This document shows positions 24,701 to 30,700 of a DNA stretch of 64,000 bases, piece after piece. Made by a program: the position numbers. Location of the stretch: contig JAVJNR010000008.1 of assembly GCA_040217195.1 (NCBI GenBank), positions 1-64,000 of the forward strand, in the 5' to 3' direction. The DNA comes from Leptospiraceae bacterium (GTDB lineage Bacteria > Spirochaetota > Leptospiria > Leptospirales > Leptonemataceae). Positions within the stretch are counted from its first letter, which is position 1; each line of letters begins with the position of its first letter.

Positions 24701-27700
24701 GGCGGAAATGAAATCACTATCCCAAATTACGAAGTATTAATGTACAGAACCAATTAATTGCAAAGGCCCTGGCCGTGCCTGTTTGGTTCGTACTTTCTGC
24801 GAAACGGTACCAGCCCGCCAGGGCTCTATTCTCCGAATCTATTACACTTTATGCTTATCGATACGCACTCTGGAAATCGAACGAGGCAAAGGCTGCGAAC
24901 GGTCCGGGGTGGCTTGCACATGATTGGAAAGTAGGAGATCTAGAGTGACTGTAGGGCAGTGGCTTAGAGAAAATAGAACTGAATCGTAACTGCCAGAATC
25001 GCACCGATGGCCATAAAGGCTCCCAGAGGTGCCGGGGATCGGTGATCCTTCTGAATGAACAGTATCTGGATCACACTCCATCCAGAGCCCAGAATAATGG
25101 GAAGCAGCACGTAGGGCATTCCCAGAAAAAGTGCCAGTGGTACGAGCAACCATACATCACCCAGACCAAGTCCTTCCGGCTTCCATAGATGAAGGGGCAG
25201 GGTAAGTATCAGAGCAAACAAAGCCGTCAATACGGGACCGATCCAGACACTGGCAGCCAGGAATTGAAACAATAGTCCCAGGGCATCCGGAGACTGCTGT
25301 AGTAGATCTAGATTCTGTTTGAGTAAAAACCATTCCTGACCCGGGTCAGAAAACAGCATGGATTTGCGAGCCAGAGCACACAGTGCGATCAAAGCTGCAA
25401 GAATTGTATTTTCATAATCGAGGCTGAACAATGTCCAGTCTGTGGTGATTGCGATGATCAAATGACCACAGAATAAAATGGCCAGTATTGAAAGAATTAG
25501 ATCCTGACTGGTAAGCAGGAAGTAAATTAAAAGCAAGCCACCGGTGAATTCTAGAATTGGATGGATGGCCGGAATCTCTGCCTGACAATGTTTACAATGT
25601 CTTCGAGCGAAGAAATAGCCCAGCACCGGAATAACATGCAACGGAGGTATGGGCATTTCGCAATCGTCGCAGAAAGATCGACGGGTAAAGAACTCCTTCC
25701 AGCGTTGCCCATAGCTCAGTTGCTTTCGCGCAGGTCCATAAAAGAAATATAGAACTCTGCTTGCACTGGCAATGTAGAAGCTGAATATCGAGGCTCCCAT
25801 GATGAAAGCCATAAGCATTGCACCCACCATCACGTGGATGGGCATGGTTTCCAGTGGAGTATTCAAGCTCCTACCAGGGCCTTCAATGCCCGGGCTCCCC
25901 TTTCCAGGGTTTCATCTGGAGCGGCATAGGAGATGCGAATCCAATTACCTCGATCGGTAAAAATGCTACCAGGCACTACCAGTAATTGATGTTCGTCGAT
26001 TCCTCTCTGTACGAAACTCAAAGAATCTTCAGGCACTTTTGCAAACAGATAAAAAGCACCGTCCGGTGGTCCAAACTCATAATGTACTTTCAATTCTCCT
26101 GCCAGAAAGTCCCTTCGTTTTCTATAGTCATTGACCTGGGCTGTCATATCTGTATCCAGGGCCGCCAGTCCGGCCCATTGATGCGGTGTTGGAGCACATA
26201 CGATCGTATATTGCTGTAGAGTTGTCATGGCCTTGATTAGCTCTTCTGGACCTGTGACCGCGGCAAGTCGCATGCCGGTCATACTGTAGGACTTGGAAAA
26301 CCCCATCATAGTTACTGCTTGATCGTAAATGGAAGCCGCACTGTTGAATTTACCGTCGTAGTCGAAGATTTCATAGATCTCATCGCTGCAAAGCAGTGCT
26401 CCGGTCCTATCTGCAAGGTTTCCCAGGGCCTTGATTTGATCTGCTGAGAGTATTCGACCGGTGGGGTTGGATGGGCTGGAATATAGGATTAGCTTTAATC
26501 GATCAAACTTTAGGCTGTCCAGGGCCTCCGGTTTGAAATCCTCGGAAACGGTTCTTTGCTTTGCTCCAAAGAATCCAGACAATCCTCTATAGATTAGAAA
26601 AGAAGGCTCAATCAGTAGTACTTCATCCCCTGGATCGATTGTTGTTAGAAATAACAACTGTAGAATTGAGGCCACCCCGGAGGTAACCAGAATGTCTTCA
26701 GGCCTGGTTTGAAATCCGTTACTTTCTGCAAATTTCTCGCAGAGTCGCTGTCTCAGTTCTATGATCCCCTGGGTCTGGGAATAGGCAGTCTTATTCTCTG
26801 AAAGAGCCTTTCTGGCCGCTTCCACGATTGGTTCCGGAGTGGGAAAATGGGGAAGACCAATAGATAGATTGATGGGCGAGTCCAGTTTTGCTGCCAGATC
26901 AAACATCCTGCGGATCTGGGAGGTGTCTATATGGTTCATTCTTTCGGAAAGGAAGGATTCTGCCATGATGGAACCAGAGGGCCGGCAGCCCCATTTCCGA
27001 AAAGTATAAATCCAGGGCGCCGGCTGCTGATTCTTTCTCAGTCCGGTTTGTATGCCAGGCCCGGCCAGCAGGATACAGGCGAGGATCCCTGAATCGGGAG
27101 GGAATCGGGAATCAATGGAAATATAGCCTATCTGGGAATGGACTGGTTAAATCGATTAGCCCGGGTAATGGTTTGTGCAAAATGTGGATTTGTGCACTGG
27201 TTCATGGGCCAGTAGAAAATTGCGGTTTTTTGTAGAGCAATAGCCGGTTGCTTTTTCCGCTTTTCAAGTTGGGCAGATGCAGTGCGGCCACAAAGAAACA
27301 GAAATGATAGGATTCGTTTATGTCCTGCCCAACGGGTCGGTAGCAATTCGGTGCACATTTCCTTTGACTCAAAAATCAATACAGGAGGCAATGTCCATTA
27401 TGCCATCCATTCAGATTGCAGGATATAATGTTCCCGTTTTTCATGAAGATCCGGGCTGGATTCCCGAGACCAATATAATTCTAACTCCTACGACCAGTGC
27501 AAATCTAAGGAAGATTCTTCCCGCAATAGTCCAGAATCGGCCTTTGCTTCTGGTGGGAGATGCAGGAGTCGGAAAGAATGCACTTATCTACTATATAAAT
27601 AGCCTTCGAAAGCATCCTACCATTCGATATAGCTTCAACGAGGATACGCTACCCGAGGATCTGGTAGGATCTTACCGACTGGATCCCAATACACATGGTT

Positions 27701-30700
27701 TTGTCTGGTCCGATGGTCCACTGAGCCAGGCCATGCGCCAGGGCTCCACATTCGTGGCCGATGAGATGAACCTGGCCAGTCCTGAAGTGCTAAAACGATT
27801 TCAGTCCATCTTCAGCGAAAACTACATTGAAATGCTGGAAGGGGATGCCACCCGCATCGATCCGGCTGCCGGATTTCAGTTTGTAGCGACTCAAAACCCG
27901 GCGGAGGGATTCGAAGGCCGCAAAAATCTCCCCAGGGAAATACAGAAATACTTTATCACTGTCTATCTGGATCCGTATCCAGTGGCTGAGCTGGTGGAAA
28001 TCCTCAAAGGTCTCTATTCCGATGTGCCAGAAGATGTGCTAAATGCAATCGTTCACATTAACCGGGATGTGGAAGATGCGGTGATTCGCAAGAAGATTGG
28101 ATCCAGGGATCTGGAGAGATATCATTTTAATCTCAGGAATTTGTCTCGACTGACTCGTAGAATCGAAGAGCAACCCCAGGCTATCTATCAAGAGCTATCC
28201 GATGTTTATCTGCGCCCGTTTCGCACAACAGAGGATCATGTTGAAGTCAAAGGGATGTTCGAAAATCGGCTGAAAGAATTTGGTCTTTCCGGTATAGCGG
28301 AGCGAAAGCATCCAGCTGTGGAATTGGCCGCCAATTCGGACGGTCGGTTTTCCATTGGTCGGGCCTTGCTTGAATTAAAGGAGTTTCATTCTGAAGGTGC
28401 AAGCATTCCCGGTGCAGATGCTTTTAAAGCAAATTTAGAGAAGGCATCCCGGGAATTTGTTCCTGTGCCTGCCCGTGCGGACCTGCTGGAATCAATCGCC
28501 CGGGCTATACAGTTCCGGGAAAATGTATTGCTGGAAGGAGATTCGGACGTGGAGCCCGATGAATACGTGCGATTCTTTGCCAACGCTCTGGGTCGGGATC
28601 TGCATGTGGTTACCCTGTCCCGCGGAATGCACACTGCGGATGTAATGGGAGGACTGAAGCCAGCATCCGGTAACGGTTCTTCCGAAGGGGCTGCAGTGGA
28701 CTGGGTAGACGGTCCTTTAACTCGTGCAGTGAAAAACGGTGAATTCATCCTGATCCAGGGATTGGAAGCTGCTGGTCCTGAGCTGGTAGAAAAGCTAAAT
28801 ATGCTGATGGACGATGCCCGGGCTTTGATGCTTCCTCCGGAGTCAGGTAGCAATGAACCGGTATTTCTGCCTCCAGAGTCTAGAATCTTTGGTATCAAAT
28901 TCTTTCGCTCCCAGCGAACCTCACCCACAGTTAGTCGTGCCTTTCGTAACCGATTTACCTGTTATACCATCCCCGCGGTCGAGGATCCGGAATCTCTGCG
29001 AGCCATACTGCGAAGCCATCTTGGTCTGGCCGAGGAGGAAGCTCCTGAACTGGTGAAGCTCATGCAACAGTTCCACACAGCAGTAAGAGAAAAGGCGCGA
29101 AAGAGAGAAATCGGCGCAGCCAATCTTCAGCCTTATCGATTCGGACTGACCAATCTGACCAGGTTTACAGATTCCGTAGGATGGGCCGTGGCCGAGCCAG
29201 AAAACCTAAATCAGGGAATGCTCAAGGATATTATTGCAGAGGGGGCAGGCATCGCCTATTTACATGAAATTGCAGATCCTGTGGAGAGAGAGAAAATGTT
29301 CTCACTTCTGGACTCTCTGCTGGATGGACAAAACCCGGATGCTTTGCTGGATGGTCTAAAGACCATTTCAAAAAAAAAAGCCCTGAAAGAGAAAACCCAT
29401 AAATCCAGAATCTGGTGGGATCAGGATAAGCACTGGAGAGAAGCCAACACCGGTAAAGCGAAATGGAATCTGGATGGTCGTGACTTGAAGGAAGGAATCA
29501 ATATCGATACTCCTGAAACTGGCGGTCAGACGAAAGAGGGACCGGATGCCTGGTACGGACAGGACACCCAGGGAAATAAAGGTGTGGGCGACCCCGGCCA
29601 TGGCGGAGGCGCCTGGGGCTATCGCAGTGAAGAGCTGTACCAGGAATTTCTCAAGAAGCGCAAAATTCTATGGGATTACAGCATTGGCGTAAGCCTGGAA
29701 GATTTCAAAGAAGTATTTGGACCGGAAATCGACCGTGTAACTGTGGATCTGGATCGCTTCATGGATCCAGATATTCATATCAACCGTCGCTATGAATCCA
29801 GAGGCTCCCGGGTGGATGCGAGAAAATACCTGTCCTACCTGGCAGGTCGCAGCGATGGAAGAATCTTTGATCGAACTACCATTAACATAGATGAAGATCG
29901 CCTTAAAGGTGTTGAGGTTCTCTTTGCACTGAATAAAGGTCGTCGGATTTTCAACTTCGAGTACTCCATCGCCACCCTGGTGGCTTTGATGAGTTCTGCA
30001 GAAATCCTGAGCAATCATCGTATTCCTTTTGGCGTTGTGGGTTATTCGGACCTGAAAAACTCCAAAGTAGATATTGATATGCAATGGTTTAAGAACCTGG
30101 ATCCAGAGTATGGTCCACAATATGAAAGCCATCTATTCTCCGGAATTGCCCAGGCCTGGCATGGAGATACCATACCGGAAAGCCATATTATGGAAGAGCT
30201 GAGTTCCTATTTCTCGACAGAGGCTCGCACCAGAATCCTGGTAGTTCTTTCGGATTTCAGAGGCAGTCGAGGAAAAGTTAATATGGAAGCAGATCTGCGC
30301 AGCCATGAGACAAAAGCTCTGGTGGGTGAGGTAGAGAAGCTAAAAGAGAGAGGACTGGTGATGCTGGGAGTGGGCCTGGGACCCAGAGCCATAGCGGAAC
30401 AGATTTTTCCTGAAAGCCTGAGCATTGCCAGGGAAAACTATGCGAATCTACCGGGACTTCTGGCATCTTCCATCACAGAAATGATTCATCGATACCACAG
30501 CGCCACCGAGGGTGCTCCTGGATCGGCATCTGATCAGGGAAATGATGGTCGGTCCTATCGAAGGGAAGAAGCTTCCTGATTCGGTAAGAATCATATGGCA
30601 ACGAAAAAGAGTACAAAGAAAACCAGTCCCGGTGCCGGGAAAAAGACTGCAAGCAACGGTTCCCGAAAGGGTAAGAAATCTGCAGGATCGAATAGCAGAT

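Follow-up and report, generated by a model that had tools for sequence, protein, structure and literature searches.

A midasin-class AAA-AAA-VWA protein of the Leptospira class with a conserved ten-A run at its AAA/VWA junction

Midasin (Rea1/MDN1) and dynein are derived from single-module MoxR ATPases, the six-module chain having arisen early in eukaryotes, according to an excerpt of PMC3495828. In NorQ-NorD and CbbQ-CbbO a MoxR AAA+ hexamer is paired with a VWA partner; the NorD finger comprises residues 403-448, and a finger-in-pore mechanism is described (PMC13036017, in excerpt). On chelatase-gene poly-A runs of 7, 9 and 11, frameshifting reached 10, 40 and 63%, respectively, and the T. 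thermophilus gamma subunit is produced through a run of nine A (PMC3711429, in excerpt). A literature search found no paper on the AAA-AAA-VWA family of the Leptospira class; a search with guessed L. interrogans tags beside smpB (LIC12418) gave no match, and the excerpt of a giant-gene preprint names AAA_5 in one legend only. NCBIfam has no model for the family, its one match, GvpN, lying below cut-off. Here we describe a member of this family from a Leptospiraceae bacterium, encoded in a contiguous stretch of 64,000 nucleotides (the window).

Domain architecture and the predicted ATP site

The genome-wide survey's note had reported a 1059-aa ORF at 27400-30579 (+), which we recovered unchanged behind an AGGAGG at 27383-27388. 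The parts of the gene are as follows.

27383..27388, + strand: Shine-Dalgarno-like AGGAGG ahead of the ATG (27400), from sequence
27400..30579, + strand: full-length AAA1-AAA2-VWA gene, ORF of 1059 aa, single copy in the genome
27463..28284, + strand: odd-type module 1, comprising a large domain (about 22-200) and a midasin-type lid (201-295), from Pfam, conservation and profiles
28447..29369, + strand: even-type module 2, comprising a large domain (about 350-530) and a lid (531-657), from conservation, models and profiles
29500..29634, + strand: Gly-rich motif 701-745, best-conserved stretch, unstructured in monomer models
29683..29904, + strand: helix and hairpin, about 762-835, matching the N-terminal extension of NorD and MIDAS in alignment
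29905..30504, + strand: VWA core 836-1035, from models and alignment

Pfam, PDB sequence matches, Foldseek and structure models all agree with the survey's proposal of two midasin-class AAA+ modules and a VWA domain on one chain. Pfam places AAA_5 in two stretches, the best at residues 48-180 and the second at 28525-28836, and AAA_lid_7 at residues 197-291 (E 7e-13). The top PDB sequence matches are midasins, with E of about 1e-90 summed over modules; NorQ and CbbQ rank below them (E 1e-11 to 1e-7). The Foldseek matches are dynein and Rea1/Mdn1 rings.

In an alignment of 117 family proteins, to which all counts over 117 refer, module 1 has invariant K59 and N60 in its Walker A motif (GxxGVGKN), Walker B D121-E122, sensor-1 N166 and lid R246 (each 117/117), and is without an RxRF arginine-finger motif. 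Because this Walker A motif ends in Asn rather than Thr/Ser, ATPase activity is a prediction. Module 2 is present, as the survey had claimed, but is without the Walker A lysine and the Walker B DE; it has the arginine-finger motif, with R516 and R518 invariant in 117/117. Judged from sequence and models, there is one predicted ATP site per chain, with Walker motifs from module 1 only. The "helical linker" earlier assigned to 550-660 is instead part of the module 2 lid (531-660), not a midasin-type linker.

The modules follow each other in odd-even register, as in midasin, and the kinship to midasin that had been proposed is upheld by the profile scores. Module 1 scored 297, 255 and 227 against the midasin odd modules AAA5, AAA1 and AAA3, versus 150-221 against even modules; module 2 scored 216 and 195 against the even modules AAA2 and AAA4, versus 127-184 against odd modules, and only 125 against AAA6. 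The odd/even idea itself is said to come from Garbarino and Gibbons (2002).

Predicted docking of module 2 on a chain of modules 1 and 2 gave an ipSAE of 0.42 (best control 0.01). The mark by which it is judged was attained by 116 of 157 solved pairs and by 2 of 215 mismatched ones; 18 of these solved pairs and both mismatches scored 0.60 or under. Runs agreed in at least 82% of contacts, and partner pLDDT was at least 79. The score of 0.42 may stem from likeness to solved midasin and dynein rings. The survey's suggestion that three copies give six modules is plausible and gains slight support from these models, but the conserved slippage site described below suggests that most copies would be without a VWA domain.

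The C-terminal VWA call, formerly weak, is now firm. The C-terminal model matched NorD-VWA (Z 21.2, rmsd 3.3, 236 aligned; NorD 382-638 to model 99-361) and human MDN1-MIDAS (Z 18.0, rmsd 3.0, 205 aligned). The MIDAS motif had been called degenerate; this is true of the DxSxS loop, which is replaced by K846-x-R848-R849 (each 117/117), but D952 (117/117) and T/S at 924 are kept. By alignment and models, then, the domain is a VWA with a NorD/MIDAS-type extension and without the metal loop, and from the models we infer a pore-inserting finger at about 790-830.

Residues 660-835, earlier taken for a low-complexity tail, proved otherwise: segment 701-760 is the best conserved (29 of 60 columns at 95% or more; mean conservation 0.82 versus 0.64 and 0.61 for the AAA modules), and about 762-835 form an ordered extension, low pLDDT within the region being confined in the models to 662-758. 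The motif at 701-745 has 8 D/E and 12 Gly in 45 residues. It weakly resembles a motif of VWA8-like proteins (score 19.1; maximum of 200 column shuffles 18.9; other classes 8-11), in a post hoc comparison with a VWA8-like set chosen by a motif.

The ten-A run at the AAA/VWA junction

A conserved run of ten A, new here, lies exactly at the AAA/VWA junction and is a predicted recoding site.

29370..29379, + strand: ten-A run, last base of Ser657 plus Lys658-660, predicted slippage/frameshift site
29384..29386, + strand: TGA closing the frame reached by loss of one A, putative short product of about 661 aa
29400..29402, + strand: TAA closing the frame reached by gain of one A, putative short product of about 667 aa

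Among 58 distinct junctions, which come from related loci and thus are not independent draws, the longest A run was 10 in 49, 9 in 6, and 11, 12 and 7 in one each; in the exception with 7 (L260) an A10 lies about 38 codons further downstream. The run occurs in two codon phases (13/23 and 10/23 loci), in genes with GC of 0.30-0.61. It is present in 27/27 parsed genes, while invariant lysines elsewhere in family genes are AAA in just 14/27, 13/27, 14/22, 16/27 and 17/21. The Lys or Glu codon directly 5' of the run is AAG or GAG in 8/8, capping its length. Both shifted frames are closed within 18 codons in 22 of 23 loci, against a background of 42%. The 4.6 Mb genome has five A/T runs of 10, and 2 of its 279 KKK tracts reach 10 A; in other genes of the same loci, 6/55 KKK tracts also reach 9 A, in a set that may include one family gene. 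A class-wide pattern scan matched 154 of 190 genomes (reversed control, 5), corresponding to about 150 of the 171 gene-bearing genomes, a few matches being off-target.

No shared downstream stem-loop was found in 23 loci (z below -2 in 1/23), nor by eye a consistent upstream Shine-Dalgarno at the run in these loci, and we therefore do not favour ribosomal frameshifting of the stimulated kind. Scans for promoters and terminators gave chance-level results. The DNA-level conservation, the two phases and the near stops in both shifted frames lead us to predict chlD/dnaX-like slippage.

The run could instead be a phase-variation switch worked by replication slippage, the VWA half being on or off in different members of a population, and not a device for making two subunits in each cell. 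Consistent with this, a nine-A run with a frame break occurs at the junction in four genomes, an observation that we also count for recoding, and some five stored N-terminal fragments stop just past the lysines, in a shifted frame. Yet the run is held at ten class-wide, in a single-copy cytoplasmic core gene that is in frame in most genomes; truncation at this point leaves a complete two-module ATPase; and phase-variable genes mostly encode surface-exposed proteins (PMC3711429, in excerpt). We consider such a switch improbable. Still less probable is that the lysines are kept for the protein's sake and the A run is incidental, the full-length chain alone being made, as a homo-trimer with three VWA domains. 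K658 is indeed present in 113/117 and K659 in 108/117 proteins, and several lineages are AT-rich, with an AAA share of up to 0.93; against this, the run is still there in genes that use AAA for 31-43% of their other lysine codons, it comes in two phases capped by G-ending codons, and it has been relocated in one lineage. As a separate matter, nine- and eleven-A alleles may be homopolymer assembly errors.

Distribution and kinship

The family is near-core in its class, being present in 171 of 190 genomes (L. biflexa and Leptonema among the named members) and missing in 19, including all 6 genomes of two families; it was not found in 316 other Spirochaetota. Neither a neighbour conserved across the whole class nor, at the locus, a chelatase context or a client gene beside the AAA-AAA-VWA gene was seen. 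The downstream neighbour in the window is as follows.

30595..31308, + strand: gamma-carbonic-anhydrase/PaaY-like gene, downstream same-strand neighbour in 11/12 loci within the genome's own family and in no other family

Midasin strips assembly factors from precursors of the large ribosomal subunit; a hint at such a role here is that the genes smpB-der-plsY follow the AAA-AAA-VWA gene in 11/12 loci of family f2.

The survey's choice between a prokaryotic intermediate and a captured midasin piece was too narrow: bacteria also have two-module ATPases whose VWA is encoded by a gene of its own, as well as six-module AAA+VWA giants (found under Vulcanimicrobiota, Armatimonadota and Omnitrophota labels). 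These systems score closer to midasin than the Leptospira-class protein does, and all three parts of the latter score closer to them (Vulcanimicrobiota, Omnitrophota) than to midasin. Module 1 scored 382 and 339 against bacterial odd modules (best midasin 297), module 2 scored 285 and 248 against bacterial modules (best midasin 216), and the VWA domain scored 107 and 104 against bacterial partners (E about 1e-14), versus 33 against midasin (E 1e-3). These scores favour a derived branch of the prokaryotic two-module family over capture, and at the sequence level the protein reads as such a branch.

Trees neither show nor reject capture, and AU tests, in which grouping with AAA3-4 was left out, rejected nothing; dynein sequences were absent from the trees. 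A careful tree of 25 rows, with the two longest rows and extra units left out, put the family beside midasin AAA5-6 (support 57/31). In a quick single-module tree, covering 132 of 278 modules, the deep branches formed a star. Of 541 candidates only 12 were matches in a search for shorter relatives, which makes for thin outgroups.

Capture of a eukaryotic midasin piece, for example AAA5-AAA6 joined to the MIDAS domain and fixed in the class ancestor, would fit the best PDB matches, which are midasins, the careful-tree position, the grouping with AAA1-2 that was not rejected (p-AU 0.22) and the 0/316 in other Spirochaetota; Rea1 D6 is also inactive and D1 without an arginine finger (PMC3264779, in excerpt), like module 2 and module 1 here. 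It nevertheless seems unlikely in view of the higher scores of both modules (AAA6 only 125) and the VWA domain to bacterial systems, and of midasin monophyly, which was not rejected (p-AU 0.46) and had SH-aLRT 84 in a larger quick tree of 49 rows. We give a similarly low weight to a closer kinship with mitochondrial VWA8, which has three AAA modules and a VWA, the protein then being its bacterial sister or orthologue and not midasin's. In the Atlas, the look-alikes that follow the protein's own cluster are AAA_5 clusters from eukaryotes, several of which bear the name VWA8 (0.97-0.98), but the Atlas size limit excludes full-length midasins. VWA8-like ORFs also have the GxxGVGKN Walker A (present in 1 of the long representative matches), VWA8 too has long and short isoforms (PMC8517341, in excerpt), and the C-terminal profiles are colinear over 302 columns including the Gly motif (E 1e-3), whose score exceeds all 200 shuffles, though in the post hoc test with the motif-picked set described above. 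On the other hand, AAA profile scores to VWA8-like modules are the lowest of the multi-module classes (module 1, 51-158; module 2, 83-87), the VWA score is 34, and VWA8-like modules group together, apart from the Leptospira-class family (SH-aLRT 88). Two sets of PDB sequence matches, of 11 and 21, contain no chain named VWA8.

Proposed mechanism and comparison with known systems

Taken as a whole, the explanation we lean towards is a class-wide housekeeping remodelling ATPase of NorQ-NorD/midasin type, built from a two-module unit and split by slippage. RNA polymerase, or less likely the ribosome, would very probably slip on the A run to yield AAA-AAA subunits of about 660 aa beside the 1059-aa AAA-AAA-VWA subunit. 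Three chains would, in all likelihood though less surely, form a closed ring of six modules that has three live sites and about one VWA domain, module 2 of the same chain supplying the arginine finger. One VWA per ring would match midasin (6:1) and NorQ6-NorD1. The VWA finger may dock in the pore, ATP cycles twisting or pulling it together with the conserved Gly-rich linker, while the basic KxRR patch would stand in for the metal, gripping an acidic peptide or the phosphate backbone of a client; here we see the balance as even. The family probably arose by fusion within bacterial gene pairs of a two-module ATPase and a VWA, after which slippage would have brought back the ratio between the subunits. 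A ribosome- or tmRNA-linked client is the leading guess, but a doubtful one.

More broadly, and tentatively, the two-module odd-even AAA unit might be the real building block of midasin-type rings, with bacteria still showing three routes to six modules for each VWA: a pair of genes, repeated triplication within a chain, and, in the Leptospira class, a fused gene from which poly-A slippage makes two short chains for every long one. On this reading the Leptospira machine might be a working model of the pre-midasin state, possibly acting on ribosomes through its metal-free basic VWA face and possibly kin to VWA8. A two-module protein in the right register in culturable bacteria makes this intermediate state open to structure and genetics; the six-module giants, in contrast, were found here only in metagenome assemblies. 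From the A10 site we predict programmed recoding, as yet unannotated, of a near-core gene throughout the class, L. interrogans included; if true, this shows how an ATPase can be fused to its adaptor while the ratio stays at 6:1.

Like midasin, the protein has midasin-class modules with AAA_lid_7 in odd-even order, a C-terminal VWA with MIDAS-type extension (Z 18.0 and 17.6) and, by prediction, six modules per VWA. It differs in being bacterial and in having two modules rather than six, so that its ring must be oligomeric; in having neither the long linker nor the D/E tail, with about 100 conserved Gly-rich residues between lid and VWA extension instead; and in having lost the MIDAS DxSxS. With NorQ-NorD and CbbQ-CbbO it shares the best C-terminal structural match, the NorD VWA with its finger (Z 21.2), as well as predicted finger-in-pore remodelling and many ATPase modules per VWA. 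Unlike these systems, with their single-module ATPase and separate VWA gene, it has tandem modules, one of them dead, fused to the VWA, and is without a metal-binding loop or an adjoining client gene.

The bacterial two-module ATPase and HExxH-VWA pairs and the six-module giants have the closest profiles for both modules and the VWA, and the same odd-even unit. In the pairs, however, both Walker A motifs are kept, DxSxS is intact, the VWA has a gene of its own and the junction is without the A run (longest 2-5 A in 12 junctions, 9 two-module and 3 one-module); the giants' consensus has an HEGGH motif ahead of the VWA that was not seen in the Leptospira-class protein. VWA8/KIAA0564 resembles the protein in tandem AAA_5 and VWA on one chain, a GVGKN Walker A, long and short forms (predicted here) and a Gly-rich motif 136-155 residues ahead of the MIDAS position, but has three modules and an intact DxSxS, and its profile scores to the family are low.

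Chelatase (chlD) genes and Thermus dnaX likewise have a poly-A run between AAA and C-terminal parts that gives a short and a long subunit (PMC9227772, PMC3711429, both in excerpt), and the sequence here shows the chlD-type arrangement, in which a slippery run separates AAA from VWA and the alternative frames soon reach stops. The differences are that here the long form is the in-frame one, that the ATPase is a two-module midasin-class unit, and that the recoding is predicted from sequence.

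Domain architecture and conserved residues

The family protein, a two-module midasin-like AAA+ ATPase with a C-terminal VWA domain, is encoded by a gene present in one copy in the whole genome. The features of this gene in the window are as follows.

27383-27388, AGGAGG motif (Shine-Dalgarno) ahead of the gene
27391-27393, additional in-frame ATG, 9 bases upstream of the annotated start and 2 bases from the Shine-Dalgarno motif
27400-30579, + strand, open reading frame of the family protein (1059 aa)
29370-29379, run of ten A at the AAA/VWA junction (last base of Ser657 and Lys658-660)
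29384, TGA met when one A is lost
29400, TAA met when one A is gained

Position 27400 is the likelier start, over the ATG at 27391-27393. Elsewhere in the window, a 168-aa protein (24251-24757) carries DM9 repeats (Pfam E 8e-25), which occur mainly in invertebrates.

The genome-wide survey's note had described two AAA+ modules and a C-terminal VWA domain on one chain, and this architecture is real. Pfam matched two stretches of AAA_5 plus AAA_lid_7, a PDB sequence search ranked midasins first and NorQ/CbbQ next, and the AlphaFold2 model (117 sequences; mean pLDDT 84.2, with low values confined to 662-758 and the tail) matched dynein and Rea1/Mdn1 rings in Foldseek. The VWA assignment was settled by a separate model of residues 670-1035, whose similarity to NorD-VWA (Z 21.2; 236 aligned, rmsd 3.3), human MDN1-MIDAS (Z 18.0; 205 aligned, rmsd 3.0) and Rea1-MIDAS (Z 17.6; 205 aligned, rmsd 3.1) exceeded that to ordinary VWA domains. 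The helical linker once placed after module 2 is instead the second AAA lid (residues 531-657).

Conservation was assessed in 117 full-length members, i.e., every collected protein of 940-1150 aa. Module 1 keeps K59, N60, D121, E122, N166 and R246, each in 117/117, and has no RxRF motif; module 2 has lost its Walker A lysine and Walker B DE and keeps R516 and R518 in 117/117. Because of this Walker/arginine pattern, and with ATP sites assigned between modules by the usual AAA+ ring geometry, each chain is predicted to have one live site, between modules 1 and 2, and the inter-chain junction site would be dead. The Gly-rich stretch had been called disordered, but residues 701-760 are the best conserved segment (29/60 columns at ≥95%) and therefore a functional motif rather than filler. 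The MIDAS, defined as DxSxS-T-DG in PMC3264779, is altered: DxSxS is replaced by K846-x-R848-R849 in all 117 members, with D952 retained.

The ten-adenine run at the AAA/VWA junction

The gene is broken near residue 640 in several genomes, which led us to the ten A at 29370-29379. The case for this run is its conservation in kin sequences, not window statistics, as an A10 within the 64-kb window alone does not exceed chance (present in 28/100 shuffles). All the loci compared are related, so the counts that follow exaggerate their independence. Among 58 distinct junctions (66 loci), the longest A run was 10 in 49, 9 in six, and 11, 12 and 7 in one each. The junction with only seven (L260, genome G410) has an A10 ~38 codons downstream instead, six codons ahead of the Gly-rich motif, where the shifted frames stop after 4 and 1 codons. 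In a lineage-spread set (23 of 24 loci analysed), 20/23 had exactly ten A; gene GC was 0.30-0.61, and the codon phase was one in 13 loci and another in 10. As controls, the 4.6-Mb genome has five A/T runs of ten, 2/279 of its KKK tracts hold ten A, and in other genes at the lineage-spread loci 6/55 KKK tracts hold ≥9 A. Within the family genes themselves, AAA encodes five conserved lysines in 48-81% of cases, vs a run present in 27/27 parsed genes (out of 31 loci), and the Lys/Glu codon immediately 5' of the run was AAG or GAG in 8/8. A class-wide pattern scan matched 154/190 genomes (a few off-target matches included), vs 5 with a reversed control.

Both shifted frames stop within 18 codons at 22/23 lineage-spread loci, vs a background of 42%; the median distances to the stop are 5 and 2 codons, vs 11 and 14. 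In the window, the stops met after a shift would leave the two-module ATPase whole. No common stem-loop was found 3' of the run in the lineage-spread loci, so that a stimulated ribosomal shift fits less well than transcriptional slippage. Poly-A recoding has precedents in chelatase genes of the chlD type and in Thermus dnaX (PMC3711429, PMC9227772). In four genomes (L244-L247; G079, G088, G294, G222) the junction holds nine A and the frame is broken there, which could be genuine alleles or errors of assembly. In some other assemblies (L248, L249) the contig ends near the run.

Distribution and relatives

The C-terminal part was present in 83/84 other genomes of the Leptospira class and in 0/316 other Spirochaetota sampled. 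The AAA part was found in 171/190 class genomes: 114/114 in one family (f2, taken as Leptospiraceae from its named homologues), 33/41 others in the source genome's own family, and 0/6 in two further families. Named carriers include L. interrogans, L. biflexa, Leptonema illini and Turneriella. Gene neighbours differ by lineage, with smpB, der and plsY downstream in 9/9 f2 loci and 2/3 further f2 loci, and a gamma-carbonic-anhydrase-like gene downstream on the same strand in 11/12 own-family loci; in the source genome smpB and der lie ~400 kb away.

The best 150 representatives include six-module proteins that are not midasin, and a GTDB scan with these gave 56 loci of three classes. Six-module AAA+VWA giants carry Omnitrophota and Planctomycetia labels. 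The second class, labelled Vulcanimicrobiota, Bacillota and others, pairs a two-module ATPase with a separate VWA gene downstream, in which DxSxS is intact. In the third, from Myxococcota and others, a protein with a single detected module is accompanied by a VWA gene. Module 1 profile scores were highest for odd modules (giants 382, two-module forms 339, midasin AAA5 297, AAA1 255, AAA3 227; even midasin modules 150-221), and module 2 scored even modules at 285 (two-module forms), 248 (giants) and 216, 195 and 125 (midasin AAA2, AAA4 and AAA6), which places module 1 with the odd and module 2 with the even type. The VWA profile scored the bacterial forms at 107 and 104, midasin at 33 and VWA8-like proteins at 34. 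The bacterial forms scored 250-460 against midasin modules, above the family protein's own scores; the two-gene systems score nearer midasin than the family protein does and are the most ancestor-like forms encountered.

The prokaryotic giants (L160, L161, L163-L168; P0129, P0130, P0138, P0242, P0265) have six alternating midasin-class modules, a midasin-like pre-MIDAS sequence and a C-terminal VWA that scores 189 vs midasin and 114 vs VWA8-like proteins. One of them, P0130 (MFC1753351.1), is labelled a Thermoproteota archaeon. In P0242 (4471 aa) the three two-module units are nearly identical (branch lengths 0-0.03), so that the unit was either triplicated very recently or multiplied by misassembly. 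The two-gene loci (L173:9596-14187, L175:9638-14518, L176-L179, L182, L209) have both Walker A motifs. Proteins of ~930 aa at L183-L215, mostly from Myxococcota-labelled genomes, have their one detected midasin-class module near the C-terminus, without a canonical Walker A; the N-terminal 600 residues of four that were tested had no Pfam match.

In trees, units of several giants cluster with units of the same protein, and six-module chains therefore arose repeatedly or are homogenised. PMC3495828 dates the six-module step to early eukaryotes. Placement of the family protein, in trees built without dynein sequences, differs between analyses: a 49-row quick tree put it outside midasin (midasin SH-aLRT 84), a 25-row careful tree put it beside midasin AAA5-6 (support 57/31), and AU tests gave p-AU 0.46 for midasin monophyly and 0.22 for the family protein with AAA1-2.

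The family protein bears a likeness to VWA8, and VWA8-named Atlas clusters are among the nearest after its own. A VWA8-type motif fetched 110 stretches (80 with flanks), whose ORFs have three AAA_5 modules with GVGKN in the third; these are presumably VWA8. Kinship with VWA8 is a lead: the alignment is colinear over 302 columns (E 1e-3) and the Gly motifs are weakly alike (19.1 vs a maximum of 18.9 in 200 shuffles), but VWA8-like modules have the lowest AAA profile scores to the family protein. Eukaryote-like ORFs of ~1340 aa (L016:2945-6979, L012:1342-5355, L024, L064) carry a VWA8-type Gly motif without Walker A, with a single weak AAA_5 match in the two tested; these are apparently ATPase-dead VWA8-like proteins.

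Proposed working mode and known systems

Slippage at the A10 run probably yields both short and long chains, judging from the sequence pattern, and three chains would likely form a ring carrying about one VWA. In docking to a chain of modules 1 and 2, module 2 scored 0.42 vs 0.01 for the best control (agreement ≥82%, partner pLDDT ≥79); this is weak support and could stem from solved rings. The bacterial two-gene pairs have no A-run at the junction and can set the subunit ratio by expression; a fused gene needs other means, which the A10 run would supply. By analogy with NorQ-NorD, whose VWA has a pore-inserting finger and is twisted during ATP cycles (PMC13036017), a finger at ~790-830 would insert in the pore, and ATP cycles would twist the VWA and Gly-rich linker. 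The basic KxRR patch, in place of the lost metal loop, might hold an acidic or phosphate-bearing client. We regard this scheme of finger and patch as evenly balanced. The leading guess for this client, the ribosome or tmRNA, is itself a doubtful one.

Literature searches returned no account of the family protein or its A run. It shares its proposed working mode with NorQ-NorD and midasin, and its gene shares a predicted recoding mode with chlD. By its module number and altered MIDAS it does not qualify as a VWA8, and, since midasin has six modules, a long linker and a MIDAS whereas the family protein lacks all three, it is not a midasin.
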